64,000 nucleotides of DNA, from positions 19,588 to 83,587 of IMG/VR virus record IMGVR_UViG_3300025280_000026. One strand, given 5' to 3'. This document shows, one piece after another, positions 19,371-48,666 of this stretch; position 1 is the stretch's first letter, and the number at the start of each line of letters is the position of its first letter. The position numbers were made by a program, and so were the translations under genes. Origin of the DNA: a virus. The notes below the pieces were generated by a model. The model was not told the origin of the DNA. It did no database searches and saw only the letters and a program-made list of their open reading frames with translations.

Positions 19371-20261
19371 ATGTCTAGAAGAAATAACCGTGCCAGAGCA
19401 GGAAGCACAGAAAAAAAAGTTCCTGCTGATTCTTCTGTTGAGGCTACTCTAGCCTCACAAAGTGACGAGAGTGGTTCAAGTTTGCTGTCTTTCGTGACAC
19501 CAACAGAGTTTGTTCAGTTGCCTTCGAAGGGCAAATTTTACCCTTCAGAACATCCTTTACATAATAAAGATGTTGTTGAAATTAAGTACATGACTGCGAA
19601 ACACGAAGATATTCTGACTTCACAAACCTTGCTCAGGAAGGGAATCGCTATTGATCGGTTATTAGAAAGTCTTATTTTAGATAAAAGTATAAAATTAGAT
19701 AATTTGCTTATAGGAGATAAAAATGCAATTACAATAGCAGCCAGGAAAACCGGCTATGGAAGTGAATATGAAACTTCCATGGTATGCCCCGGCTGTGGCA
19801 TAAAACAAAATCATTCTTTTGATTTGGACGAGTTAAAACACAACTTTCCTTTTGAAGAAGAACTAGAAGAATTTAATATAGAATTAACTGCAAATAATAC
19901 ATTTTTAATTAATTTGCCCCAAACAAAAGTTGCTTTAGAAACTCGTTTGCTTAGTGACGCAGATGAGAGAGTATTGGAGAAGACAAGCAAAATGCGTAAA
20001 AAGCACGGTCTCGGCCGTGGAGAAATTACTTTAACCGATAGATTAAAAGCGGTTGTGTTAACAGCAGATGGAGAAACTAATAGAAATATTATAGAGGAAT
20101 TTATTGATAATATGCCAGCTCTTGATGCTAAATTTTTTAGAGCGGCGTATGCCGCGTTAACCCCAAATATCGAAATGAAACAAGAATATCGGTGTGATTC
20201 TTGTGGACACGAAGAGGAGGTAGATGTGCCCCTGTCGGCCGACTTTTTTTGGCCTGGGTGA
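19371..20261 (+). CDS. Baseplate hub/tail assembly chaperone (T4 gp26-like)
   Basis: LPSKGKFY, MTAKHEDIL, CPGC...CDSC zinc pairs and C-terminal DFFWP. Confidence 0.8.
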   Translation: MSRRNNRARAGSTEKKVPADSSVEATLASQSDESGSSLLSFVTPTEFVQLPSKGKFYPSEHPLHNKDVVEIKYMTAKHEDILTSQTLLRKGIAIDRLLESLILDKSIKLDNLLIGDKNAITIAARKTGYGSEYETSMVCPGCGIKQNHSFDLDELKHNFPFEEELEEFNIELTANNTFLINLPQTKVALETRLLSDADERVLEKTSKMRKKHGLGRGEITLTDRLKAVVLTADGETNRNIIEEFIDNMPALDAKFFRAAYAALTPNIEMKQEYRCDSCGHEEEVDVPLSADFFWPG

Positions 20262-24615: not shown

Positions 24616-27600
24616 GTGGCGAATGTAGTTAAATTAACTGGCGTATTTGGTAACCTCAGAGATCTGTTGAAGAATGAGAAAGTGTGTAACGGCAAAATCA
24701 AGGGTCTGACTGACGATCAGGTCGATGATGCTGAGCACATTGCTCATCTTCTCGCCATCCAAACCCTCGGCGATCGAGTTGGGTTCTACTTCAATCTCTT
24801 ACGTTTGCCGCTGATGCCTACTGGCGCCAACAAACATATTATCCCAGGTTTAAAACCCGGCACGGACAAAGAACCCGCCGCCATCACGCCGGAACAGCTT
24901 TTAAGTTTTGGTGTTGCTCTAAAAACTGATTCATCTGCTGATCCTGCAAACTACAAGGCGACAATTGAAAATTTAGCAAAACAACTTATTGGTGGTAGTA
25001 ACCATGTTCTAAACAAAGCATTTCTGCACCAACTTATTACTAATAAAAGTACAGGCACCGACGCCAAAAGCAATAAAATTGGTTCCGTAATAAAGGAGAT
25101 AGATAAGCTTATCGCCCTCGGTGCCAACACTCTTCGCGCGCGCCAGAAAGACGCCGGCTCCGCTCTTGGTTTCGTCGATCTTCGAGCCTTCATCGGCGGT
25201 AAACTTCCAGTAGGCTTGGGTTTAAACCCAAAATTTACAAGCAACTTGGTAAAATTTTTAGATGCCCGCTTTGCGTTAACATTAAATGAAATCAAGTCTC
25301 CCATCGATAAAACAATATTTGAAAGACTTTTATTCGAGACTTTAGCAAAATGCGGCGAAACGAACGAGGCTTCCGGCATTCTAAAATATTTAATGGATCC
25401 TGGCACAAACGTCGCTCCACCAACGCCCTTCGTCACCGGCGACAAGATCGACCTCCCCGACGACAATACAGCAGGAACAAGACCTGTTGGTTTTTATCTC
25501 GGCACCCAAGGCGGCCAAAACGCGCTCGGTTTCACTTCTGATAGCGTAGCTAAACTTACAAAAGCATTTTTAGTTAGTATCAAGGACCAGAGAATAGTAA
25601 TCAACGACAGCACCGTCTCAAGCACCGGCAGACTTAGTTCATATTACGCAGTTTTCATAGACAAATTCGACCCCATATGTCGCGAGTTCGTCGACCCAAC
25701 AAACGATTCAGCCACCAACGTAGCCGAGCAGATCGGCAACCCTCTAGAATTAAAAAGAAGGCGCCTACAAAATATTAGATGTGTTTTACCTTTATTCGAG
25801 CACCTTTATTCAAGTCCGAATGCGCAAACTTTAAGGGATCCCGGCCTCGTTGGGGTATATTCAAAACATTATACACACACGCTGGGATCACAAAAAACCA
25901 CCTCAACAAAACTTCCTAGAAAGTTTTTTGCAAGTACTCAACATCCTTTAGTTTTTGCACATACGAAAAATGTTGATTTTTTTATTAATAAATTGTTTAA
26001 CTACGACACAACTGGTAAAAAAGTAAAAACTTTTTTGGAAACTACAAACACTGATATTTCTTTTCTTCAACCTAGAATCCGCATCTACAAAGTATTATAT
26101 GATGATGAAAGAAATGAGATAGAGATACCGATTGAGTTTTCAAATAAGATAGAAATCGTCAAGCCTTCTGGTGTTTATGAAAGGGAAAATGCTGGGATCA
26201 AACGAATTCGTATAAATAGACTAGGACAAACCCCCGCAACTTTTGATAAGTGGATTTCGGTCGATGCTAGTTTCATATTTGATAGCGTTAATGCCTTCAC
26301 AAAATGTCGTAAATCAAATAAAGAATATTCTTATGTTGATTTATTGAGGAGACCCATTAAATATACTCGAAATTCTCCGGACCAAATAAAAACGTACCTC
26401 AAACAAGCAAAAGAAGTATCAACCAAAGATGATATAAAGAAATTTGCTGAATACATGAATTCAGTTAGTTTAGATGTATACAATCCAGAATATTTTGAAA
26501 TAAAACTTGAAGTTGGCTGGTCTTTTAACGAACAAGTTTTCGTGAATTCAAGAGACCGCGGTGACCTCCGTCGCGATTTAAAGGATTTTTTGAACAGAAC
26601 AAATTTAGTTTTGTATTTATATTTGACAACACATAACTTTACATTTCGCAACGATGGCACCATCTCCTTGGATATTAAATATATGGGCCGCGCAGCTGCG
26701 CAGCTAATGGATTCATTTGATACTAATGTATTCCACACGCCAAATTTGAAGTATTATAGAAGATCTTCCCAAGCTCTGTCTGAGTTGCTTGACATATCAT
26801 CTGGTCTAAAAACTAGTGATGGTGGACTTGAACCCGAAGATCAGAAAAAGCTTCGTCAAATGAAAAATCGATTGACTGCCAAATTGAGTCAAGAGAGATC
26901 TGAATTAACCAGTCAATTGTGGAAACGCTTGGTCGACCAAGAAAAAACATTGCTTCAACCGGCAGAGGTAGAAGGGAAAGATAAACCCACACATATGTTG
27001 AAACTAACAATGCCAGAACACTTTGCCTTTTTTGATGCGAACGCATTGAAAGAGGAATTCCAAATTAATCTGCCCGGATCCCAGGAGAAGGAATTCGAAA
27101 ACAAATCCGAAGAAGTTGTTTTAGATCCAGCTTTAATTATGGCTCATTACCGTGCTAAGTTGAAAGGTTCGAATGCCAAGCCAGGGGATATAATGCAACT
27201 AAGCGTTGTTAAGAAAAACGGACATTTTCAAGGCGAAGAGGGAGTTCCCCAAACCGCCGATGAAGCGTCGAGGGCATACGAAGAAGGCGATATTTTGAGG
27301 CCTGAAGACTTTGATGCACAGCAACGCGACTCCGATAAGGAGATGGAAGCACTGCCTTTCCAAAAAACATATATGAATAGGAAGGAAAAACAGAAGAAAA
27401 TAGATGTGTATTGTATGAGATACGGATCCGTGATACACACTGCAGTGCAAAACATATGGCAATTTAATCCAGAGGGGTTGAGGGACATAGTTATAATGTT
27501 GAGCGGCACCAAATTTCGGTCTGTGGTCGCAGGCGGAGGCGCCAGATACATGAACTTTGCCGATGTTCCCATTTTGTTTGAAGACTGGAAACGCTTTATA

Positions 27601-28416
27601 TTGGATAAAACCGTTAACAAGAAAAAGGTTAATTATGCTTTAATTGATTTTATAAGAGATTCGATGATGGAACTTTTAATTCCGGCAATGGGCGCGATGC
27701 AAACTGGATGCAAAGATGGATCTCAAATTGTGTCGCCTCTGAGGGGCGTGCGGCCGAAGCTGACTACTTTTTCAGCCCGTCGCCCAAAAGCGTTACAGAC
27801 TACGAACGGACGCATTGCTGTTAATTTAGATGTCCCCGGTAGCCACCTTAAAGTCGGGCAAGACTTGTTAAACAACAAAGATATCTTGTCCGACACTAAA
27901 GGAGACTTAAAACACTTCTTGGTTATATATGATTCTGGTTTTTCTTACGATGCTGAATTCGAGAAGAAAACTTCGAGGCCTAAATTATATGATGAAAACT
28001 TAAAACACAATATTCCACATTTTTTCATTGGTGCGAACAAGGGAATTCTAAGAACCATATCATTCCAGAAATCAAGTGTACCATTTCTCCAAGAGGCGAA
28101 AGTTCTGGACCGCGGCCATACTGATTTTGGACTCCTCCGCGAAAAATATGATTGCACTTTAGAAGTTGTAGGTGACGCCCAGTTCCATTGCGGTATGAGA
28201 TTTTATTTGGATCCAACTTTCACGGGTATGTCTTCTCAAAACATAGATGTAGTACAGGGTGTTCTCGGCCTGGGCGGTTATTATGATATTATAAACGTAA
28301 ATTCAGATATAAGCGACAACGGTTTTAAAACCACCTTGGTTGGTTCGTGGCAGGCTTTCCGCCCCGGGTATAATCCTGAAAGAGATCGCGTTGACCCTTG
28401 TAAAGAAATACCTTGA
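24616..28416 (+). CDS. Large baseplate hub-like tail protein, 1266 aa
   Basis: Gene position; the C-terminal GLGGYYDIINVNSDI...FKTTL is typical of hub proteins. Confidence 0.6.
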   Translation: MANVVKLTGVFGNLRDLLKNEKVCNGKIKGLTDDQVDDAEHIAHLLAIQTLGDRVGFYFNLLRLPLMPTGANKHIIPGLKPGTDKEPAAITPEQLLSFGVALKTDSSADPANYKATIENLAKQLIGGSNHVLNKAFLHQLITNKSTGTDAKSNKIGSVIKEIDKLIALGANTLRARQKDAGSALGFVDLRAFIGGKLPVGLGLNPKFTSNLVKFLDARFALTLNEIKSPIDKTIFERLLFETLAKCGETNEASGILKYLMDPGTNVAPPTPFVTGDKIDLPDDNTAGTRPVGFYLGTQGGQNALGFTSDSVAKLTKAFLVSIKDQRIVINDSTVSSTGRLSSYYAVFIDKFDPICREFVDPTNDSATNVAEQIGNPLELKRRRLQNIRCVLPLFEHLYSSPNAQTLRDPGLVGVYSKHYTHTLGSQKTTSTKLPRKFFASTQHPLVFAHTKNVDFFINKLFNYDTTGKKVKTFLETTNTDISFLQPRIRIYKVLYDDERNEIEIPIEFSNKIEIVKPSGVYERENAGIKRIRINRLGQTPATFDKWISVDASFIFDSVNAFTKCRKSNKEYSYVDLLRRPIKYTRNSPDQIKTYLKQAKEVSTKDDIKKFAEYMNSVSLDVYNPEYFEIKLEVGWSFNEQVFVNSRDRGDLRRDLKDFLNRTNLVLYLYLTTHNFTFRNDGTISLDIKYMGRAAAQLMDSFDTNVFHTPNLKYYRRSSQALSELLDISSGLKTSDGGLEPEDQKKLRQMKNRLTAKLSQERSELTSQLWKRLVDQEKTLLQPAEVEGKDKPTHMLKLTMPEHFAFFDANALKEEFQINLPGSQEKEFENKSEEVVLDPALIMAHYRAKLKGSNAKPGDIMQLSVVKKNGHFQGEEGVPQTADEASRAYEEGDILRPEDFDAQQRDSDKEMEALPFQKTYMNRKEKQKKIDVYCMRYGSVIHTAVQNIWQFNPEGLRDIVIMLSGTKFRSVVAGGGARYMNFADVPILFEDWKRFILDKTVNKKKVNYALIDFIRDSMMELLIPAMGAMQTGCKDGSQIVSPLRGVRPKLTTFSARRPKALQTTNGRIAVNLDVPGSHLKVGQDLLNNKDILSDTKGDLKHFLVIYDSGFSYDAEFEKKTSRPKLYDENLKHNIPHFFIGANKGILRTISFQKSSVPFLQEAKVLDRGHTDFGLLREKYDCTLEVVGDAQFHCGMRFYLDPTFTGMSSQNIDVVQGVLGLGGYYDIINVNSDISDNGFKTTLVGSWQAFRPGYNPERDRVDPCKEIP

Positions 28417-28443: not shown

Positions 28444-29922
28444 ATGGCCTCATTAATAAACATTTTCGAAATAGCGGACTACGAAGATATTAAACAGTCT
28501 TTGCCAATCAACGGCGCATCTCCCGTGATCACTACAAATGTTATAGATTTCTCCCAGCCAGGAGCTAATTTATACGGCAAAGTTGATCGAAGAAATGAGG
28601 CAATAGTCCCAAAAGTATCAAACAATAATTTGCTCACTGTCGACGGTTCTCAGGCTCTAGGGATGATATCTGTCGAAGCCAACACCCAAGTTTTTGATTT
28701 TGTTGCAGATGCATACAACGATATGATTGATTATTTACAATCCGTTCGTTTCCGTGCTGGGGAATATTCTCCTGATTCATATGAAGACGAAGATGGAAAT
28801 ACTAGGCAAACTTTTCTAATGAACTTATCCCCGTCTGGAGGATATATTAACCCGAAAGCATTACATTCAGAACATTTAGATATTATATACGATCATTTTG
28901 TTAAAGTATATTTGGGTAAAAAAAGCAGACATAAACAGATAAACGATCACAAAGATTTTATAAAGATGTTCGTGAATTATGTTTTTAGTGATCTTTTTAC
29001 GAACATTGCTAGTATAAATTTATCTTCCCATATAAAAAAATCACTCATTCCAATTGAATGCACTGGTTTGGTTGTAAAGGTTGCCGCTCCCGTGGTTGAA
29101 GACCAAGTTAACAACAACCAATATTTTTGGAGGGATCCTAATTTCAGTTTGTATGTATCAACAGCTCACAAATTTGGCTTTTATGTTGACAAAGATCGTC
29201 CTTGGATGCTCGTCGCCAATTTGGGGTCTAGAATAATGGATAGTTATCTCCGAGCGAGAGGTTCTTTTTTGATTAAGGATACTTCAGAAAGTGGTAAAAC
29301 ACACCCCGGGGGTTTGGGGCATATACACGAATATGAAATCGATTCTCGTGGGGATGGTAGAACAATTTCAACTTCCGCCGGCCCTGATCACACACATACT
29401 ATTAAAAATTATTGTGTTAAATATGCTTTGAAAGAGTTACCGCATCCGCATGATTTACCAACACAAGATGTATTTACAAAATATTATGAAAGGGCCCAAT
29501 TAAACGAGCTTAAAGAATTAATAACTTTGCTCCATAGGATGTATTCAAGTTATATAAACCAAAACCCTCAGAACGTTGTCAACTTTTTTGAAGCCGGCAA
29601 ACTTGTAAAGAAAAGCACTTTCCGTAAAAATGTTTCAGAACAAGAATTCAGCCTGGCTCTATCTGAGAAAAATTGGATTAGATTTTATTTTGATTTAAAA
29701 ATCAACGAGGAAAAATTATTTCTCAAGAGAAGTAAATATTTAAAAATTCTCCGTAACGCACAAGAAAAAGTCCTCTCCAGTACTAAACAAGAAGCAGTAG
29801 AATACATTAACGAGGAAATTAACAAGCGTTTGTTTTATTTAGTTCAAGGTCCGAACGTTAATAAATATTATCATAACTTACCAGGGCCCAACACGCTAAA
29901 AAAACTAGCAGAATATTTCTAA
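28444..29922 (+). CDS. Hypothetical protein with a His-rich HxH segment
   Basis: 492-aa ORF containing GHIHEY...DHTHTI...PHPH. Confidence 0.65.
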   Translation: MASLINIFEIADYEDIKQSLPINGASPVITTNVIDFSQPGANLYGKVDRRNEAIVPKVSNNNLLTVDGSQALGMISVEANTQVFDFVADAYNDMIDYLQSVRFRAGEYSPDSYEDEDGNTRQTFLMNLSPSGGYINPKALHSEHLDIIYDHFVKVYLGKKSRHKQINDHKDFIKMFVNYVFSDLFTNIASINLSSHIKKSLIPIECTGLVVKVAAPVVEDQVNNNQYFWRDPNFSLYVSTAHKFGFYVDKDRPWMLVANLGSRIMDSYLRARGSFLIKDTSESGKTHPGGLGHIHEYEIDSRGDGRTISTSAGPDHTHTIKNYCVKYALKELPHPHDLPTQDVFTKYYERAQLNELKELITLLHRMYSSYINQNPQNVVNFFEAGKLVKKSTFRKNVSEQEFSLALSEKNWIRFYFDLKINEEKLFLKRSKYLKILRNAQEKVLSSTKQEAVEYINEEINKRLFYLVQGPNVNKYYHNLPGPNTLKKLAEYF

Positions 29923-29950
29923 TTGTCTTATTAAGCAGCGTGTTTATCTT
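29923..29950 (+). promoter_or_regulatory. Sigma70-like promoter for the mini-PolA/tubulin genes
   Basis: TTGTCT-N16-TATCTT. Confidence 0.5.
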
Positions 29951-29967
29951 ATTGAAAGAGGTTTGTT

Positions 29968-31158
29968 TTGTATTTTCAAGTCATTGACGATAAGACAGAG
30001 TGCATTGGCGTTTACGCAAATGAAAAAATATATTATGACGAGATGCCAAAGGGCATTTCAAAGACATGGAAGTATACTTCGATCCTACGCGATAGAAATG
30101 ATATAGAATATGCTAGTTTATATTGTGGCGGAGAAAACTTGGAAAAAGCATGTCCAGAACATTTGCAAACGCGATTACACAATGTGCTTGACCGCTTCAA
30201 AGCATATTTAATTTCGTTTAAAGAAGCAAAGATATCGTTATATGATAATTGCTTTTACGATTTAGTTCCAGAGAGGTTCGTGTTAAAATATTGTGATGTG
30301 AAAAATCAAATTACAAAATATATTTTTGAGAATTACGACAAGCCCAAGAATTATAATTTTCTTGTCTCTCTAAGCAAAGTTCTGGAAGATATTAAATATC
30401 GAGCCCTTCAATTGGATTTTGATGGTTTTGATTTTGGTTCTGTGGGAGGAAGGGCCTTCCATAAAAAAATCAAGCAAATCAATCCTTATATCGCATATGA
30501 TATTTTTGGTTCTAGAACTGGACGCTTAACAACCAAGAAAAAAAGCTTTCCTATTTTGACTCTAGACAAGAAATATAGGGGCACCTTAAAACCAAATAAC
30601 GACTATTTTGTCGAATTAGACTTTAACTCAGCCGAGATCAGGACTTTCTTGGCCCTCCAAGGCCTCAAGCAGCCCAAGGAGGATATTCATACCTGGATTG
30701 GTGAGAACGTCTTTAGGGGCCAAATAACCCGTGAAGAAACAAAGAAGAAGTTTTTTGCATGGTTGTACAATCCTGAAGCAAAAAATGAGGTTCTGGAGAA
30801 AATTTTTGATAAAAATAAAATATTAGAGAAATATTGGGATGGTGAACAAGTTGAAACACACTATGATCGAAGAATAAAAGCTGGTAAGAAGCATGCCTTG
30901 AATTATTTAGTACAGAGTACCACAAGTGATTTATTTTTGCGTCGCGTGATCGACATATGGGATTTTTTGAAGGGAAGGTTAACCCACGTTGCTTTTTGTA
31001 TACATGATTCGTTGATATTAGATTTTTCTATAGAAGATAAGCCACTACTAGAAGGGATTATCGATACATTTTCAAATACAGAATTAGGGAGATTCAAAGC
31101 CAATGTGAGTATTGGAAAGAATTTTGGTGAAATGAGGAAACTAGAATGGAAACAGTAA
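29968..31158 (+). CDS. Minimal family A DNA polymerase-like protein, 396 aa
   Basis: RTGRLT, motif A ELDFNSAEIR, motif B REETKKKFFAWLY, ALNYLVQST and motif C IHDSL. Confidence 0.8.
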   Translation: MYFQVIDDKTECIGVYANEKIYYDEMPKGISKTWKYTSILRDRNDIEYASLYCGGENLEKACPEHLQTRLHNVLDRFKAYLISFKEAKISLYDNCFYDLVPERFVLKYCDVKNQITKYIFENYDKPKNYNFLVSLSKVLEDIKYRALQLDFDGFDFGSVGGRAFHKKIKQINPYIAYDIFGSRTGRLTTKKKSFPILTLDKKYRGTLKPNNDYFVELDFNSAEIRTFLALQGLKQPKEDIHTWIGENVFRGQITREETKKKFFAWLYNPEAKNEVLEKIFDKNKILEKYWDGEQVETHYDRRIKAGKKHALNYLVQSTTSDLFLRRVIDIWDFLKGRLTHVAFCIHDSLILDFSIEDKPLLEGIIDTFSNTELGRFKANVSIGKNFGEMRKLEWKQ

Positions 31159-32006
31159 TAGGTTTAGGTCAAGCTGGTTGTAAAATAGCAGAACAGTTTG
31201 CAAAATATCCCCAGTATGACGTTTATCGAATTGATTCTGAAAAGAGACAGGGAAACAAATTTAAACATATTAAAGAATGCGATTCACATGAGGAGTATGA
31301 GAACAAGTGTCCTTCATTCAAAAGATTTTTTAAAAATGTAAAACCACCTTATCTTTTTATACTTTCCGGCGCAGGATCCATTTCTGGCTCGGCCTTAAGA
31401 ATAATGGAACAATTAAATTCTGATGATATATACGTTCTATATATAAGGCCAGACACCTCGTTACTATCCGAGATCAAGAAAAAGCAGGAGAGAGCAGGTT
31501 TTCATGTGTTACAGGAATTCGCTCGTTCTGGGTTGCTCAAAAGAATGTTTTTGGTTGATAACACAAAAGTAGAAGAGCTTATACAAAATCTTCCAGTAAT
31601 CGGTTATTATGATAAATTAAATGAAATGATAGTATCTGTGATGCACATGATAAATTGTTGCATGAATTCTAAACCGGAGCTTGAAACATTCGACGATCCA
31701 CCAGAAACTGCGAGGATATCAACTTTGGGAATTGTTGAGCTAGAAACGGGCAAAGAAAGTTTATTTTTTGATTTAAAAATGCCTCGTGAAAAGGTATACT
31801 TCTATATGATTCATGAAGATAAATTAAAGAATGACGGAGAGTTATTAAAGACCATAACGAGCCAAGTTCGCTCAAGGATGGAAGGTGGCAACATACAGAC
31901 GTCATTTGGGATATACTCCACGGAATATGAACAAGGGTACGTTTATGTTCTTGCACACACTTCTTTAGTACAAAATGAAATTTTTTATTTGTCTGATAAG
32001 AATTAG
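31146..32006 (+). CDS. Tubulin/FtsZ-family GTPase-like protein (PhuZ/TubZ-like)
   Basis: N-terminal VIGLGQAGCKIA (T1 loop), IDS, a degenerate T4 loop SGAGSISGS, and LVDN. Confidence 0.75.
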   Translation: METVIGLGQAGCKIAEQFAKYPQYDVYRIDSEKRQGNKFKHIKECDSHEEYENKCPSFKRFFKNVKPPYLFILSGAGSISGSALRIMEQLNSDDIYVLYIRPDTSLLSEIKKKQERAGFHVLQEFARSGLLKRMFLVDNTKVEELIQNLPVIGYYDKLNEMIVSVMHMINCCMNSKPELETFDDPPETARISTLGIVELETGKESLFFDLKMPREKVYFYMIHEDKLKNDGELLKTITSQVRSRMEGGNIQTSFGIYSTEYEQGYVYVLAHTSLVQNEIFYLSDKN

Positions 32007-32088
32007 TGCTTATTATTTATACAGCGATAATCAACCTAGATGTTCAGAAAATTAGCTGGGCATACTATACCAAAAAAGGAGAATTTAC

Positions 32089-32841
32089 ATGGGTATTGAT
32101 ATGAAGAAGATGAAGTCAAAGCGGGAAGCTTTGCAAAACCGTGGAAGCGGTGGGAGTAACAAGGAAATGTTTTGGCGTCCTCAAGACGGCGAGACCACAA
32201 TCCGCATTGTCCCAACTGAAGACGGTGATCCGTTTAAGGATTTCTGGTTCCATTATAATGTGGGCAATAATCCTGGGTTTTTGAGCCCGAAGAAAAACTT
32301 CGGTGAGGATGATCCCCTTGATAGTTTTGTAAGGAGTCTCTTTAAGGAGGGTTCAGATGATAGCATCAAGATGGCCAAAAGTTTGATGGCCCGCCAACGT
32401 TTCTTCGCACCAGTCTTGGTTCGAGGGGAAGAGGACAAAGGAGTCCGTGTCTGGGGCTTCGGCAAGATGGCTTATCAAGAGTTGCTTAACCTTGTTCTCA
32501 ATCCAGACTATGGTGATATTACTGATATCTCAGAGGGTACCGATTTGGTAATTACTTACGGCAAACCCCCGGGAGCACAATTCCCGCAAACGACCATTAC
32601 GCCTCGCCGTCGGCCGTCACCCTTGTCAAGTGTCAAGAAGGATATCAAGACGTATCTTGAGCAAGTACCTGATTTTACTACGCTTTTCGAGCGTAAGACC
32701 CCGGTACACGTTCAAGGAATGCTCGATGAATTCCTCTTGGGCGAAGAAGCAGAGGAGAATTCAACGGAAACTAAGAAGTATAAAACAGATACTGACAAGG
32801 CATCTTCCGTTGATGAGGCTTTCGCAGAATTTCTTGGTTAA
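32089..32841 (+). CDS. Single-stranded DNA-binding protein (gp32-like)
   Basis: FWRP..G.T.IRIVP, GVRVWGFGK, YGDITD..EGTDL and acidic tail VDEAFAEFLG. Confidence 0.85.
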   Translation: MGIDMKKMKSKREALQNRGSGGSNKEMFWRPQDGETTIRIVPTEDGDPFKDFWFHYNVGNNPGFLSPKKNFGEDDPLDSFVRSLFKEGSDDSIKMAKSLMARQRFFAPVLVRGEEDKGVRVWGFGKMAYQELLNLVLNPDYGDITDISEGTDLVITYGKPPGAQFPQTTITPRRRPSPLSSVKKDIKTYLEQVPDFTTLFERKTPVHVQGMLDEFLLGEEAEENSTETKKYKTDTDKASSVDEAFAEFLG

Positions 32842-32849
32842 TTCCAAGA

Positions 32850-32883
32850 ACCACAGGGAGGCATAGGTTTATCAGGTGCCTCA
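32850..32883 (+). repeat. Copy 1 of a ~33-bp palindromic direct repeat
   Basis: ACCACAGGGAGGCATAGGTTTATCAGGTGCCTCA. Confidence 0.85.
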
Positions 32884-32948
32884 ATTTTCATTAATGGGAT
32901 GACGGTTGTATAATAACCAAAATATCCCCTAACTACAAGGAGAATAAA

Positions 32949-34250
32949 ATGAAAAAAATTAAATTAAATCTGCCGCCTGGGCAGCCATTCTTAACAAACG
33001 GGAATGGAGTATACGACGTGTATGTAATACCGTCTTTGGAATGCGGATTAGACCAAATACCAAAAGGTCTGAATCCTCGGGATCTGGACCCGGAGTGTAC
33101 AAAAGTTAAAAACATCAAGGCCAGCTTTTTAAAAAATGACAATATGTTTATAACCAAGTGCGGTGGCATGCAAGTTACTATAGATAACGACTCTTTTGAG
33201 TTCGATTCAAATAATAGTTGTGTCACTTTCACTTGCGAATGGGGTCATAATCCACCACGGCCGATCGCAGAAGGTCGATCTGGTCATTATGATGGTCAAC
33301 ATAGTGGGTACGCTATAACCACGGCTCTTCAAGAAAATCCAAATGTTAATGAGGAGGTTAAGGTGACCCTCGTGGAGCAGCGCGTGTTTAAAACTATTGA
33401 TGAAAACCGCGACGCCACCAACTGTTGGAATGACAGAACCAATCAAAAGCAGTCTAGCGAACAAAACATGCGAGGACTTTTTGATGATCTGAAAAGCAAT
33501 ATCAAATATACTGACCTTAAAAATATTGGATGGAAACAATATCAGAAAAACGTCAATGGTGAGAAAATAACTGCCGCGAATGAGGTACAACAAGTCATCA
33601 GACTTTTATCTACCTACTTCCCTCTAACTTATGAACCGGGCCTTGGTGTTCCTTATATCGCGACACTTCCTAAAGCTGGAGAGAAAACAGCGATCAATAT
33701 GTTAACAAACGACAAATATAAGCCGTATACTCTTCCCACACAAAAACATGTGGATTATGTTTTAGAACTGTCTGATTATATTCAGAGCACTATGGAGAAT
33801 ATTTTGGGCAGTGATTTTAATGAATTTCCATTAATTAAACAATCCGGCGCCAAGCAGCTTCTTAAGCAGCCAAGCAAAAGAAGATTTTTTAGAACAAATT
33901 TATTCAATGGTCAGGAAGCCATCGGTGCCCTTAACAAAGACTATATTTTGATGTTCGTATACGCAGTTGTTAGTAACTGCTATGAATGGGATGAAAAGAG
34001 ACAAGAATATGATCAAAAGCATTCTATTGCCTCCGCAAAAGCAATCTGGTCTGAATACGGCAAAAGGCTGCTCGATGAAGTTAATAGAGATTTTATAGCG
34101 TCTTTTGCAAATTCGAGCAAATCGAGAAAGTCTGATTTTGTTAATCAGCACACCAAGTGGGGTCTACTCTCACACTTAATTTTCAAAGGAATGAGGGATA
34201 ACAAGTGGAAGAATAGAATCAATACTTCTCTTAAAGCAAAGGCAGCTTAA
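32949..34250 (+). CDS. ParB/Srx-fold protein (AIPR/DGQHR-like)
   Basis: NPR...IKASF...F....GG...DGQH..YAI...V.VT...N pattern of AIPR/DndB-like ParB-fold domains. Confidence 0.55.
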   Translation: MKKIKLNLPPGQPFLTNGNGVYDVYVIPSLECGLDQIPKGLNPRDLDPECTKVKNIKASFLKNDNMFITKCGGMQVTIDNDSFEFDSNNSCVTFTCEWGHNPPRPIAEGRSGHYDGQHSGYAITTALQENPNVNEEVKVTLVEQRVFKTIDENRDATNCWNDRTNQKQSSEQNMRGLFDDLKSNIKYTDLKNIGWKQYQKNVNGEKITAANEVQQVIRLLSTYFPLTYEPGLGVPYIATLPKAGEKTAINMLTNDKYKPYTLPTQKHVDYVLELSDYIQSTMENILGSDFNEFPLIKQSGAKQLLKQPSKRRFFRTNLFNGQEAIGALNKDYILMFVYAVVSNCYEWDEKRQEYDQKHSIASAKAIWSEYGKRLLDEVNRDFIASFANSSKSRKSDFVNQHTKWGLLSHLIFKGMRDNKWKNRINTSLKAKAA

Positions 34251-34257
34251 ATGCCAC

Positions 34258-34290
34258 ACCACAGGGAGGCATGGGTTTATAGATGCCTCA
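34258..34290 (+). repeat. Copy 2 of the ~33-bp palindromic direct repeat
   Basis: ACCACAGGGAGGCATGGGTTTATAGATGCCTCA. Confidence 0.85.
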
Positions 34291-34309
34291 TTCAATATAT
34301 GGAGAAAAA

Positions 34310-35410
34310 GTGGCCAGGAAAGCTAAAAAACTAGGAAAGCTCAGCATGGATGACATGCGAAACCTAATCAACAGAAAAGCAGGATTAGACGTTGCACACG
34401 ATCTGAGAGAAGAGAATCCAACTGAAGTAAAACAATGGATTCCAACTGGATCAACTTGGCTGGATAATATCATATGCAGAGGCAAAAAAGCAGGAATTCC
34501 TGTTGGCAAGATATCAGAGATTGCTGGACTAGAGGGATCCGGAAAATCATGGATGGCTGCAGAAATCGCCACCAACGCTCAGGAAATGGGCATAGACGTC
34601 GTTTACTTCGATTCTGAATCTGCCATAGACCCAAGCCTCTTGGAGCGCTTAGGAGTTGATTTAAACCGGTTCCTGTACGTTCAAGCTTCGAGCGTGGAAT
34701 TTGTGTTGGAAACGATTGAGGAACTTCTTGGTTCGAATGATGGCCAAATGTTGTTCATTTGGGATTCGCTAGCTTTAACACCGGCAATTACAGATGTGGA
34801 GGGTGATTTTAATCCCCAATCATCGATGGCTGTCAAAGCTAGAATTTTGGCCAAAGGCATGTCGAAGCTGACAGTACCAATCGCGAATACACAATCAACG
34901 TTTTTGGTACTAAATCAACTTAAAACAAATATCGCATCCAATCCTTCACAAAGGATGCAAATAATGACTACTCCGTATGTGACCCCAGGTGGAAAAGCAA
35001 TGCATTACGCATATTCACTACGTATCTGGCTTACTGGTCGCAGGGCTAAATCTTCCTTTATTATGGATGGCGACGACCGCGTAGGATATCAGGTGCAAGT
35101 GAAACTTGAGAAATCACGTTTCGGAACATCTGGTCGAAGATGTCATTTTAAGATTATGTTTGCTGGAGAAGTTGGTATCCGTGATCAAGAGAGCTGGCTA
35201 GAAGCGTTAGCCGGTTCTGAAAACCTAACACAATCCGGTGCATGGTATACTTTACGTTATGAAGATGAGACCACTGAGAAATTTCAATCAAAAAATTGGG
35301 TTGAAAAAATAAATAGCAATGAACGCTTTCAAGAAAGAGTGTTGGAGCTAATGGAAGAAGAGATTGTTCGGAAATATCAAAAAAAGACTGAACAAACCTC
35401 GACTGCATAA
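34310..35410 (+). CDS. recA: RecA/UvsX recombinase
   Basis: IPTGS, Walker A GLEGSGKS, FDSE, IWDS, NQLK and TPGGKA. GTG start at 34310 follows GGAG. Confidence 0.93.
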   Translation: MARKAKKLGKLSMDDMRNLINRKAGLDVAHDLREENPTEVKQWIPTGSTWLDNIICRGKKAGIPVGKISEIAGLEGSGKSWMAAEIATNAQEMGIDVVYFDSESAIDPSLLERLGVDLNRFLYVQASSVEFVLETIEELLGSNDGQMLFIWDSLALTPAITDVEGDFNPQSSMAVKARILAKGMSKLTVPIANTQSTFLVLNQLKTNIASNPSQRMQIMTTPYVTPGGKAMHYAYSLRIWLTGRRAKSSFIMDGDDRVGYQVQVKLEKSRFGTSGRRCHFKIMFAGEVGIRDQESWLEALAGSENLTQSGAWYTLRYEDETTEKFQSKNWVEKINSNERFQERVLELMEEEIVRKYQKKTEQTSTA

Positions 35411-45213: not shown

Positions 45214-48200
45214 ATGCAAAGAGAACTTACAGAACGTACTAAATCAACCATTTCTTTCGTAGGTCTGCACGCCCATAGCGTGGCAGGCTCGCCTTTTGAC
45301 GGATTTGGGTATCCGCATGAACACATGGACTTCGCCTACCAAAACGGCTGCAATGCTTTGGCACTCACTGACCATGGCAATATGAATGGGCTATCTCACC
45401 AGGTTCTGCACGCTAAGAAAATGTGCGAAGAAGGCAAAGACTTTAAGCCAATTTTTGGCGTCGAAGCATACTTTGTTCCTTCAGTTAAAGAATGGAAAAC
45501 AGCATATGAAAAGGCAAAAGAGGATAAAAAAGCAGCTAGGGACTTAGAAAGCGACCCAACAAAAACTGCCAATGAAGACGAAGGCGCTTCCAAACAGAAA
45601 GTTGATAATATCATCCGTCGTAGAAGGCATCTTATCCTTATTGCACAGAACCAAATTGGCCTGAACAATATTTTTAAGATGATCTCAACGTCATTCCAGG
45701 GCGATAATTTTTATCGATATCCTCGCGTTGATTACGATTTAATGAGTAAACATAGCGAAGGTGTTATTGCATCATCAGCTTGCCTAGGCGGCGTCTATGC
45801 CGGTGATTATTGGGATAACCGCGACGATGGAGAAGAAGCTGTTCTTAATGCTATGCGAGAAACTACGCAGCACATGATAGATATCTTTGGTGAAAGATGG
45901 TATGGCGAATTACAATGGAATAATATACCAGAACAACACGCGCTTAACAAATATGTTTTGCGAATGAAAGACGAGTTTGATATCGATGTTATCTCTACCG
46001 CCGATAGTCACTATCCTAGTCCTGATGCTTGGAAAGACCGTGAGCTTTATAAACGTCTTGGTTTCCTTAATAGACCGAAGAAACCCGAATGGATGACTTC
46101 TGAACTTCCTGATGGCGTTGAAGAAATTGGATATGAACTATATCCAAAGAACGGCGATCAGATGTGGGAATCATACAAAAAGTACTCTGAAGAGTGTAAA
46201 ACAGAATATGATGACCAGACGGTTCTTGATTCGCTAACGACAACTCATTGGATCGCGCATCAATTAATTGAAGAGTTTATGCCAGACGATACAGTCAGGC
46301 TTCCAGGGTTTGTTGTTCCTGAAAACCAAACAGCTACACAAGCTTTAGCGCGAGCATGCATCGACGGTTTAACAAGTCTTGATTTACATAAGAAAAATGA
46401 GTATGTTGATCGTTTAAAACATGAACTGCATGTTATCGATGATCGTGGCTTTAGTAAATACTTTTTAACGATGAAGGCCATCGCGGATAAAGCGAATGAG
46501 AATATGTTATCAGGGCCCGGGCGAGGATCCGCCGCAGGTTCGTTAGTCGCTTATGTGCTTAGTATCACGCAAGTTGATCCGATTAAATATGGTTTGTTGT
46601 TCAGTCGTTTTCTTCGCTCTGATACAACAGAGTATCCTGATATTGATTATGATGTCAGCGATGCCTTTGGTTTAAAAGAGATTTTGGCTAAAGAGTGGGG
46701 TGAAACAACAGTTGTCCCAATTTCTAATTTTAATACACTGCAGCTTCGCTCTTTGATTAAAGACATCAGTAAGTTCTATGAAGTCCCATTTGTAGAAACA
46801 AATGCTGTTACCTCGCAGATGATGCATGAAGCTATGCCAAGAGCGAAACAGGTTCATGGTATTAAAGCAGGTGTTTATATCCCAACCTTTGAAGAGATTA
46901 TGGAATATTCAGAGTCCCTTCAGAAATTTCTTAATAAGTATCCACATATTAAGACACATGTTGAAGCTCTCTACGGTCAAGTCCGTTCAACGAGCCGACA
47001 TGCCGGCGGCGTTGTGATCGGCGAAGACTTAGATAAACATATGCCGCTGATTAATTCAGGCGGCGTTATACAGACTCCATGGTCTGAAGGCATGAACGTC
47101 CGCCACTTAGAACCTCTTGGATTTATTAAATTTGATTTGCTTGGACTAACAACGTTAGAAATGATCCAAGGCGCAATTGAACACATCTTGCGAAGGCATC
47201 ATAAAGTTGAGAATCCAACGTTTGAGGAAGTTAAGTATTGGTATGATAAGAATTTACATCCAGATAATATAAACTTCGAAGATAAAGAGGTTTATAGAAA
47301 TATATTTCACAAGGGTAAATTTGTTGGAATATTCCAATTTACAAACGAAGGTGCACAAAAGTTTTGCATGAGGGCAAAACCAAATAATATTATTGACATC
47401 TCAGCTGTCACATCAATTTACCGGCCTGGTCCTTTGAGCGCTGACGTTGACGATCTCTACGTCGATGCCAAAGCAAATCCAAGCAAAATTGTGCACCCGC
47501 ATGAAATTGTTAAGGAAATCACACAAGAGACCGCTGGTTTCTTAATTTTCCAGGAGCAGATTGCTTTGTTGGCTCATAAACTTGGAGAGAATATTTCTCT
47601 TGATGAAGGAAACAAACTACGCAAACTTCTCACGAAGAAAGGCACAGGAGAAAGTGCAAGAGAAAAGAATAAGATTCGTAAAAAGTTTGTTAACGGTTGC
47701 ATGCAAAAGAAGATTGATAAGACAACAGCAGAAGCGATGTGGAAGAAGTTTGAATACTTCTCAGGCTACGGTTTCAACAAATCGCATGCTGTGTCTTATT
47801 CTATTCTTTCTTATCAATGCGCCTGGCTTTTGAATTATTATCCTGCTGAGTGGATGGCTGCGTTTCTTGATAAAGAACCAGAGAAAAGGAAAGAAGCTGC
47901 GATCAATTTGGCACAAAAATACGGCTTTAAGATCGAACCAGTTAATATCAATACTTCAAGTTGGCATTGGGATATTTCTGATGATAGTAAAACGATGATC
48001 CAACCTTTAAGTTCGATTAAAGGTTTGGGCGATAAAGCCATCGAACAAATTATTAATAACCGGCCTTTTAACAACGCTGAAGATTTATTGTTTAACGAGG
48101 ATATTGTATATTCAAAGTTTAATAAAAAAGCGATGGATGTTCTTTGTCGTTGTGGCGCCATGAGAGATTTACTTGATGAGAATTTTACAGGGATGAAACA

Positions 48201-48666
48201 TCTCTGGGCATCATGTATCGCAGATCGCCCGAAGAATAAGAAAAAACTATATGAAAACATAGAACTGTATAGACCAGAGGGAGAATACACAGACGAGGAA
48301 AAGATTGAAAACATCTCTTCACTTACAGGTATTTTTCCAATCAGCCTTGTTATGACACGTGATGTCCGCGATCGTTTGGAACATTATATGGTCCCGCCTC
48401 TAGGCGCCAGAGATCCAGAACTTGGTAATGTTGTATGGTTTATTCCACGAGAAATACTTTCAAAGAAAACAAAGACGGGAAGAACATATTGGATCCTCAG
48501 AGTTATCGATAGTACCTCAACAGTTACAAGTATCAGATGTTGGGGCGTAAAAGAAGGTAAAGACAAACTTCATATTAACAGGCCATACATGGCAAAATTG
48601 GATTATGATCCTGCCTGGGGTTTTTCCACGAAGTCAATAAAGCATAATTTTAGACTTTTAGGTTAA
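45214..48666 (+). CDS. dnaE: DNA polymerase III alpha subunit (family C)
   Basis: PHP domain (LHAHS, TDHG), GRGSAAGS, YPDIDYD, HAGG, KFDLLGL and YGFNKSH. Confidence 0.96.
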   Translation: MQRELTERTKSTISFVGLHAHSVAGSPFDGFGYPHEHMDFAYQNGCNALALTDHGNMNGLSHQVLHAKKMCEEGKDFKPIFGVEAYFVPSVKEWKTAYEKAKEDKKAARDLESDPTKTANEDEGASKQKVDNIIRRRRHLILIAQNQIGLNNIFKMISTSFQGDNFYRYPRVDYDLMSKHSEGVIASSACLGGVYAGDYWDNRDDGEEAVLNAMRETTQHMIDIFGERWYGELQWNNIPEQHALNKYVLRMKDEFDIDVISTADSHYPSPDAWKDRELYKRLGFLNRPKKPEWMTSELPDGVEEIGYELYPKNGDQMWESYKKYSEECKTEYDDQTVLDSLTTTHWIAHQLIEEFMPDDTVRLPGFVVPENQTATQALARACIDGLTSLDLHKKNEYVDRLKHELHVIDDRGFSKYFLTMKAIADKANENMLSGPGRGSAAGSLVAYVLSITQVDPIKYGLLFSRFLRSDTTEYPDIDYDVSDAFGLKEILAKEWGETTVVPISNFNTLQLRSLIKDISKFYEVPFVETNAVTSQMMHEAMPRAKQVHGIKAGVYIPTFEEIMEYSESLQKFLNKYPHIKTHVEALYGQVRSTSRHAGGVVIGEDLDKHMPLINSGGVIQTPWSEGMNVRHLEPLGFIKFDLLGLTTLEMIQGAIEHILRRHHKVENPTFEEVKYWYDKNLHPDNINFEDKEVYRNIFHKGKFVGIFQFTNEGAQKFCMRAKPNNIIDISAVTSIYRPGPLSADVDDLYVDAKANPSKIVHPHEIVKEITQETAGFLIFQEQIALLAHKLGENISLDEGNKLRKLLTKKGTGESAREKNKIRKKFVNGCMQKKIDKTTAEAMWKKFEYFSGYGFNKSHAVSYSILSYQCAWLLNYYPAEWMAAFLDKEPEKRKEAAINLAQKYGFKIEPVNINTSSWHWDISDDSKTMIQPLSSIKGLGDKAIEQIINNRPFNNAEDLLFNEDIVYSKFNKKAMDVLCRCGAMRDLLDENFTGMKHLWASCIADRPKNKKKLYENIELYRPEGEYTDEEKIENISSLTGIFPISLVMTRDVRDRLEHYMVPPLGARDPELGNVVWFIPREILSKKTKTGRTYWILRVIDSTSTVTSIRCWGVKEGKDKLHINRPYMAKLDYDPAWGFSTKSIKHNFRLLG

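Follow-up and report, generated by a model that had tools for sequence, protein, structure and literature searches.

Introduction

Phage tubulins are known from two settings, PhuZ in nucleus-forming jumbo phages and TubZ in plasmid-like prophages. In T4, the leader of gene 32 is a translational operator for the single-strand DNA-binding protein (SSB). Here we describe a stretch of 64,000 nucleotides (positions 19,588 to 83,587 of the IMG/VR virus record IMGVR_UViG_3300025280_000026; referred to as the window) that encodes a 286-aa tubulin-fold protein within a block of replication genes, together with two copies of a short hairpin element that bracket a nearby gene for a 433-aa protein. The initial annotation had tentatively read these three components as the filament, centromere and adaptor of a DNA-positioning system. 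The analysis makes a different arrangement likely: a tubulin fold in a fixed gene slot, a 433-aa protein that is accessory cargo, a hairpin that marks gene junctions, and no tubulin-adaptor-centromere partition system at this locus.

Three further systems serve for comparison. In the TubZRC type III partition and RepX systems of Bacillus plasmids and prophages, a tubulin-fold protein accompanies genes for DNA replication or maintenance, as it does in the window. The second system is divPolA1, an extra family-A DNA polymerase in which the palm motifs are conserved and the exonuclease domain is dead; replication genes follow it, and a regular polymerase is also carried. Flavobacterium phage immuto is its type phage (Yutin et al. 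2024, Virol J 21:200, PMC11348598). Tubulin or FtsZ is mentioned zero times in that paper, and our literature search found no description of the 286-aa tubulin family. The third consists of the PeSLs of T4-type phages, composites of a stem-loop terminator and an early promoter that border variable genes and are inferred to mediate the swapping of these genes by homologous recombination (Arbiol 2010, PMC2839356; Comeau 2014, PMC4122927).

Results

Predicted fold of the 286-aa protein

The gene in question occupies positions 31146–32006 on the plus strand. The AlphaFold2 (AF2) model of its product, built with 40 homologues, had a pLDDT of 91.7 and a pTM of 0.90. When this model was searched with Foldseek, FtsZ and TubZ were matched at E values of about 1e-12, with TM scores of 0.63–0.73. 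Alignment by VIA gave Z scores of 24.8 to CetZ (3zid; rmsd 2.8, 257 aligned residues), 23.2 to TubZ (2xka), 22.5 to FtsZ (2r6r), and about 21.9 to beta-tubulin. Over the CetZ, TubZ and FtsZ structures (PDB 3zid, 4b45, 2xka, 4ei7 and 2r6r) the scores ranged from 22 to 25, with 257–275 aligned residues. Both domains of the tubulin architecture were recovered: the Rossmann-like domain, helix H7 and the C-terminal activation domain were all present within residues 1–280 (Z 21–25). The top viral structure models were phage FtsZ, tubulin and PhuZ entries, the PhuZ models in BFVD matching at a TM score of about 0.5. The gene is thus predicted to encode a complete two-domain tubulin/FtsZ fold. The initial annotation had called it a tubulin from the sequence alone and was right to do so, as the whole chain matched the tubulin superfamily in AF2, Foldseek and VIA.

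The protein differs from CetZ, TubZ and FtsZ in being minimal. It lacks their C-terminal tail or helix, ending with no tail beyond about 10 variable residues, and shares only 10–18% identity with them. No match to it was found in Pfam, PHROGs, NCBIfam or PADLOC, and nothing among PDB sequences was retrieved by phmmer or by a 40-sequence profile. The Pfam Tubulin profile (PF00091) did not match the protein at E values up to 10, nor did it match anything in a six-frame translation of the whole record; the same profile matched 13 of 14 control genomes. A canonical match to it was also absent in four of the five long relatives. A 166-kb relative (L083) carries a second tubulin-like gene, a 365-aa ORF on the minus strand (G005:C1:103860-104336), for which the Pfam Tubulin match was weak (27.6 bits, under the cut-off).

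Relatives of the 286-aa protein are numerous. There were 261 matches among 90% clusters and 895 clusters at 50% identity, and the family was found in at least 551 IMG/VR stretches. Nearly all members are about 270–300 aa long (150 best clusters listed, 50% identity); longer or fused relatives were not found, which is weak evidence. The family is purely metagenomic and belongs to marine phages, and its source records bear no informative names. One ESM Atlas cluster of relatives had been automatically named 'Tubulin/FtsZ GTPase domain-containing protein', so database pipelines have already touched the family.

Nucleotide-binding motifs

Conservation of the tubulin motifs was assessed over 260 family members with a mean pairwise identity of 39%. 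The T1 loop (GxGxxG), which is kept in CetZ, TubZ and FtsZ, was retained here as well, with G6 in 91%, G8 in 99% and G11 in 90% of members. In contrast, the T4 signature, [SAG]-G-G-T-G-[SAT]-G, was degenerate. The family consensus is G-[SAG]-G-x-[IV]-S-[GA] (GAGSISG in the window protein); position 79 is I or V where the signature has G, and G75, G77 and S80 are present in 91%, only 72%, and 82%, respectively. Two asparagines, N139 (88%) and N159 (90%), were placed by hhalign at N165 and N186 of Escherichia coli FtsZ; this alignment was non-significant (probability 0.2%) and was used for register only. In the T7 region (residues 173–189) no residue exceeded 65%, and an acid occurred at position 184 in 52% of members, the loop having been located by the secondary structure of the model rather than by superposition. 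Since the T1 loop is conserved along with the two asparagines that align with base- and ribose-contacting residues of FtsZ, nucleotide binding has probably been retained. The degenerate T4 loop and the lack of a conserved acid in T7, on the other hand, make it probable that polymerisation-activated GTPase activity has been lost.

A full FtsZ-like fold (Z 21–22) that lacks a conserved T7 catalytic loop is also what would be expected of a capping subunit. The protein might thus imitate FtsZ and, by capping or poisoning the Z-ring of the host, halt division during infection, in which case its location in the replication block would be incidental. Such a role would suit the early-gene neighbourhood and the lack of a long C-terminal tail, but the structure is equally near to CetZ and TubZ, and an identity of 10–15% to any FtsZ is low for co-polymerisation. 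We consider an FtsZ mimic unlikely.

A fixed slot between divPolA1 and the SSB gene

The gene upstream of the tubulin gene (29968–31158, plus strand) encodes a minimal family-A DNA polymerase of 396 aa, predicted to have no active 3'-5' exonuclease domain. Its Pfam DNA_pol_A match was limited to residues 294–386 (E 4e-8), and phrog_17 was matched at E 2e-9. The residues of motif A (D218, E223, R225), motif B (R255, K259, Y267) and motif C (H346-D347) were invariant in 36 orthologues. The sole match in a cultured phage was the 'DNA polymerase family A' of immuto. Like the immuto enzyme, the polymerase is followed by replication genes, and a DnaE-type 'regular' polymerase is encoded separately at 45214–48666. 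With palm motifs, replication-gene neighbours and a second polymerase in the genome, it has the features of a divPolA1.

The genes for divPolA1 and the tubulin overlap by 13 nt (29968–31158 and 31146–32006), as had been noted at the outset, and a GAGGAA Shine-Dalgarno sequence lies ahead of the tubulin ATG. A promoter-like site that had been proposed before the polymerase gene did not hold up: sigma-70-like sites numbered 18, against 15.9 ± 3.8 in shuffled sequences, and none was found in the 45 nt upstream of the gene.

Gene order was compared in 80 related IMG/VR loci, with tubulin identities of 43–79%. Wherever flanks exist, the order was 1266-aa gene, 492-aa gene, divPolA1, tubulin, SSB, RecA, 121-aa gene, exonuclease, DnaB and ribonucleotide reductase (RNR). 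The tubulin gene always stood between divPolA1 and the gp32-type SSB, and every locus with enough flank had both the polymerase and the tubulin. The linkage of divPolA1, tubulin, SSB and RecA was constant in all loci examined, so that the grouping of these genes in the initial annotation extends to related phages.

The overlap in the window, a gap of 52 nt or less (abutting or overlapping) in 45 of 70 loci, and the joint presence of both genes wherever the flanks suffice would fit a tubulin-fold protein that is a dedicated, translationally coupled partner of divPolA1, acting as a tether, a processivity factor or a localisation factor. We doubt that this is its role. In the other 25 of the 70 loci the two genes are 296–2345 nt apart, and no fused form was found (weak evidence). 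Moreover, the order in immuto is divPolA1, two small unrelated genes, SSB, RecA, exonuclease and DnaB, with no tubulin. That the two small genes might be a split tubulin was rejected on examining both. The type phage thus differs from the window clade in this respect, and divPolA1 does not need the tubulin. The junction between polymerase and tubulin was itself seen to be a second insertion slot, with room for at least one ORF in the 25 loci with wide gaps (e.g., L020, L022–L024, L013 and L042).

The phage nucleus was looked for by its shell protein. Chimallin (phrog_4795) was absent from the record and from four relatives, two of which are 100% complete, while the positive control, phiKZ, was detected at E 2e-232. 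The lack of a chimallin-like gene in the initial annotation is borne out by this search, which likewise supports its description of the system as 'nucleus-independent'.

The 433-aa gene is optional cargo

The 433-aa gene (32949–34250, plus strand) is sporadic. Only 10 homologues of the protein were found, and the gene was present in 2 of the 80 related loci, lying between SSB and RecA in one (L064) and after RecA in the other (L029). It is an optional accessory gene and not a part of the module.

As had been noticed, the protein carries a GHYDGQH motif. Its structure model was less certain (pLDDT 78), and Foldseek found no match to it in the PDB at E values of 0.001 or below; phmmer and profile searches of PDB sequences gave nothing real, and Pfam gave no match. 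VIA aligned residues ~16–165 with PadC, sulfiredoxin, KorB, ParB-N, SspE and BrxU at Z scores of 4.5–5.4, which are below the safe level. The motifs QIPKGxNPR and GHYDGQH fit these matches to a ParB/Srx-fold N-domain. Among the 30 nearest ESM Atlas clusters, 28 were AIPR (score 0.97, model TM 0.52–0.66), whereas Pfam AIPR (PF10592) matched only 1 of the 11 family members, at E 0.17. We call the protein AIPR-like, of an abortive-infection-type family. It resembles the AIPR/DGQHR-DUF262 ParB-Srx group (DndB, SspE, BrxU/GmrSD) in its AIPR neighbours, its weak ParB/Srx matches and its DGQH motif, and differs in having S or T in place of the DGQHR arginine. A role in competition between phages is a reasonable guess.

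Hairpin elements at the gene junctions

Two copies of the junction element lie in the window, both on the plus strand: copy 1 (32843–32890), a few nucleotides past the SSB stop codon, and copy 2 (34251–34298), a few nucleotides past the stop codon of the cargo gene. Each comprises a 7-bp hairpin, a possible pseudoknot and an A/U-rich tail. They contain a 23-nt direct repeat (32850–32872 and 34258–34280) that is 96% identical between the copies, with a hairpin in each, so that the repeats bracketing the 433-aa gene are present as first reported. None of the shuffled versions of the window gave two such repeat matches.

The related loci were surveyed for the element by pattern search, by which diverged copies may be missed, and 63 distinct copies of about 38 nt were found. 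The consensus is CC-GCAGG-GAGGCAY-G-GGttt-ACAG-RTGCCTC-A, followed by a T-rich segment. The loop sequence is conserved, and in many copies a terminator-like T-run comes next. The 7-bp stem was 98.6% paired, and shuffled and slid controls scored far lower. Four of the seven stem pairs had changed on both sides (e.g., AU to CG and CG to UA), and one pair was G.U in 24 of the 63 copies, a pairing that is valid on the plus (mRNA) strand only. These compensatory changes, with the strand-specific G.U pairs, argue for an element that works as folded plus-strand RNA rather than as a palindrome in double-stranded DNA to which a protein dimer would bind. Pairing of the 5' flank with the loop would add a second stem and make an H-type pseudoknot, which is tentative; this stem has an invariant CC/GG and one covarying pair, which is CG in 26, AU in 17 and UG in 5 copies. 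Rfam 15 holds no family for the hairpin.

The element was present in the SSB-RecA gap of 42 of 64 loci. In 12 of these the gap is 53–88 nt long and insert-free; where extra ORFs have been inserted, two or three copies occur. The geometry is regular. The upstream stop codon lies ~8–21 nt before the core of the element, and the next start codon follows ~20–30 nt after the element, the leader of the 433-aa gene being longer (~60–66 nt) both in the window and in L029. The hairpin is the core of short intergenic junctions in the SSB-RecA slot, beginning some 10 nt past the upstream stop codon. Read-through of that stop codon was dismissed as a possibility, since the frame does not connect with that of the next gene.

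The genes bounded by the element are diverse: they include a Dam methyltransferase with a 353-aa neighbour, FKBP-type isomerases, and small ORFs without assignment. The L029 homologue of the 433-aa gene is bracketed by two copies as well. In the closest relative, L001, the same SSB 3' flank and element are followed by an FKBP-like gene where the window has the 433-aa gene. FKBP-type peptidyl-prolyl isomerases (Pfam FKBP_C, E 1e-22 to 1e-24 for two genes) were the commonest hairpin-slot cargo beside SSB in relatives, being located at L001:9733-9810, L009:3671+, L010:990-1427, L042:5461+ and L047:7962-8411, and in L008 and L066. At L009:1764-3639, the 353-aa gene and a D12-class N6-adenine DNA methyltransferase (E 1e-24) stand between two hairpins; this pair may be restriction-modification-like or orphan methylase cargo.

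These distributions bear directly on the type-III-like reading of the initial annotation, in which the 433-aa protein, bound to a centromere formed by the repeats, would tie a tubulin filament to the phage DNA. In its favour, the tubulin fold is genuine, the 433-aa protein has an N-domain with a DGQH motif and a weak ParB/Srx likeness, and the repeats bracket its gene both here and in L029. Yet the proposed adaptor is missing from 78 of the 80 loci that keep the tubulin, lies after RecA in one of the other two, and has AIPR proteins of the abortive-infection type as its nearest neighbours. The proposed centromere is an element of the whole clade: it is found in a single copy, without the 433-aa gene, at the 12 insert-free junctions, brackets unrelated genes elsewhere, and shows the pairing pattern of plus-strand RNA. 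Neither the adaptor nor the centromere role survives, and the distribution of gene and repeat largely refutes the reading, which we regard as very improbable. The window clade accordingly differs from TubZRC in having neither a conserved TubR adaptor nor centromere repeats, what had been taken for them being a sporadic cargo gene and RNA hairpins, respectively.

The arrangement of a structured element, ~10–15 nt of A/U-rich sequence, a Shine-Dalgarno sequence and a start codon would also be compatible with a translational operator for the gp32-type SSB. The pseudoknot would then nucleate cooperative binding of SSB, which would cover the A/U-rich segment and the ribosome-binding sites of RecA and of cargo genes and so tie their synthesis to free SSB. 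The element adjoins the SSB gene in most loci, and the third pair of the possible pseudoknot stem covaries (the pair with CG, AU and UG variants described above). However, a copy upstream of the SSB gene itself is unusual, support for the pseudoknot is weak, and many copies run into the terminator-like T-run. An SSB operator seems to us improbable.

A covariance model search found two copies in the record, both of them bracketing the cargo gene, and 0–2 copies in four long relatives. A complete 190-kb relative (G004) has no hairpin in the SSB-RecA gap but carries it at G004:C1:181071-181118 (minus strand) and at G004:C1:132215-132261, with one copy about 49 kb from the replication block. Contigs from four marine metagenome DNA runs were also compared with the window. 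Other contigs matched only 32851–32886 and diverged on both sides, which makes the element an island of nucleotide identity common to different phages. No joint that skips the cargo gene was found among the contigs of these runs. One contig (X6) lacks a single base in the loop of copy 2, at window position 34275, an instance of length variation at the population level.

The 64-nt leader of the cargo gene contains a sigma-70-like site, TTTTCA-18-TATAAT (10/12; 32885–32914, plus strand), which is weak, since there was no enrichment of such sites after the element in relatives.

The SSB and RecA genes and the genomic setting

The SSB gene (32089–32841, plus strand) encodes a gp32-type protein (Pfam gp32, E 1e-11; phrog_1192, E 4e-26), and the RecA/UvsX-type recombinase gene ends at 35410 on the same strand (Pfam RecA, E 2e-35; phrog_97, E 7e-57). 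Both labels had been given in the initial annotation, and the Pfam and PHROGs matches agree with them. The recombinase ORF spans 34283–35410, with its first ATG (34283) falling within the 3' arm of hairpin copy 2. A GGAG lies 5 nt ahead of a GTG at 34310, and the N-terminus that results from this GTG fits the orthologues; the start is probably this codon, giving a gene of 34310–35410.

All five ORFs of the proposed block are present on the plus strand, at the positions first reported, and all genes of the window are on this strand. From 24.6 kb the order is 1266-aa gene, 492-aa gene, divPolA1, tubulin, gp32-type SSB, 433-aa gene and RecA/UvsX, after which come a 121-aa gene, a 5'-3' exonuclease, DnaB and RNR, with the DnaE-type polymerase further on. 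The 1266-aa gene (24616–28416) and the 492-aa gene (28444–29922), upstream of divPolA1, have no family match; their position is kept in nearly all relatives, at 21–57% identity.

The window is part of an 83.6-kb record that is ~46% complete. The record has T4-like structural genes (large terminase, portal, major head protein and tail sheath), and its nearest cultured phages are Microcystis phage Mel-JY01 and Flavobacterium phage immuto (terminase identity ~42%). Searches of GenBank phages by megablast and tblastn gave no match to the stretch or to the tubulin protein. The part of the window with the five genes is the head of a replication-recombination block that is conserved across a large clade of T4-like marine myoviruses without cultured members, a divPolA1-bearing group that is distant kin of immuto.

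Discussion

The block itself can be understood as an ordinary replication-recombination module, in which a DnaE replicase would be helped by a split Pol I, SSB, RecA/UvsX and DnaB. The known roles of these families suggest that the split Pol I function would be supplied by divPolA1 together with the separate 5'-3' exonuclease. The tubulin-fold protein would be expressed together with the polymerase and SSB, and may serve the phage replication factory as a scaffold that binds nucleotide, associates with itself and hydrolyses slowly or not at all. Of the roles considered we tentatively favour this one, and hold it somewhat less probable than its opposite. The hairpin, for its part, might protect or stabilise an RNA 3' end, act as an attenuator, or control translation of the next gene. 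It could double as a portable patch of homology by which cargo genes are swapped through recombination, as with PeSLs. More specific is the idea that a polymer or oligomer of a nucleotide-bound and essentially non-hydrolysing mini-tubulin gives physical order to the replisome (divPolA1, SSB, RecA) of marine T4-like phages that lack a nucleus, with the junction hairpin as a new cis-regulatory RNA that lets SSB tune the expression of recombinase and cargo; in this combined form, the idea has little probability in our estimate.

Several observations weigh against these proposals. The whole genome is collinear in the clade, and the fixed position of the tubulin gene alone therefore says little on its function. 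The T4 loop, the T7 loop and the asparagines were mapped by motif order and by an hhalign alignment that was not significant, rather than by structural superposition, and with eroded T4 and T7 loops the protein could neither bind GTP nor polymerise. On the RNA side, the pseudoknot helix was barely longer with its own partner than after partner swapping (4.0 vs 3.8 bp; permutation p ~0.01–0.02). The element is of low copy number, with 0–3 copies per genome, almost all of them in one slot, and that it acts as a recombination patch is deduced from distribution alone. Sigma-70-like sites after the hairpin showed no enrichment over shuffled sequences, and room for a promoter is absent at most copies.

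The closest described systems differ from the present one in definite ways. PhuZ is likewise a phage-encoded tubulin homologue, but the window clade lacks chimallin, has genomes of ~150–190 kb and carries T4-like structural genes; the 286-aa protein has no acidic C-terminal tail and is nearer in structure to CetZ, TubZ and FtsZ. The junction element shares with PeSLs a short conserved stem-loop at the borders of variable genes. It differs in being mostly without the promoter half (~20–30 nt to the next start codon), in its few copies and in its conserved loop sequence. It is not a typical PeSL, and PeSLs are its nearest known analogue.

As regards the biology of these phages, a much smaller and more divergent tubulin branch has a fixed place in the replication block of hundreds of abundant, nucleus-less T4-like phages of the ocean. 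As its catalytic loops are worn down, this mini-tubulin could show a use of the tubulin fold other than the dynamic GTPase filament. Dropping the adaptor and centromere reading avoids mis-annotation of the AIPR-like cargo gene, and the junction hairpin provides a testable handle on the swapping of accessory genes in one slot. If true, a replisome-organising mini-tubulin would add a third kind of phage tubulin system to the PhuZ spindles and the TubZRC partition systems.

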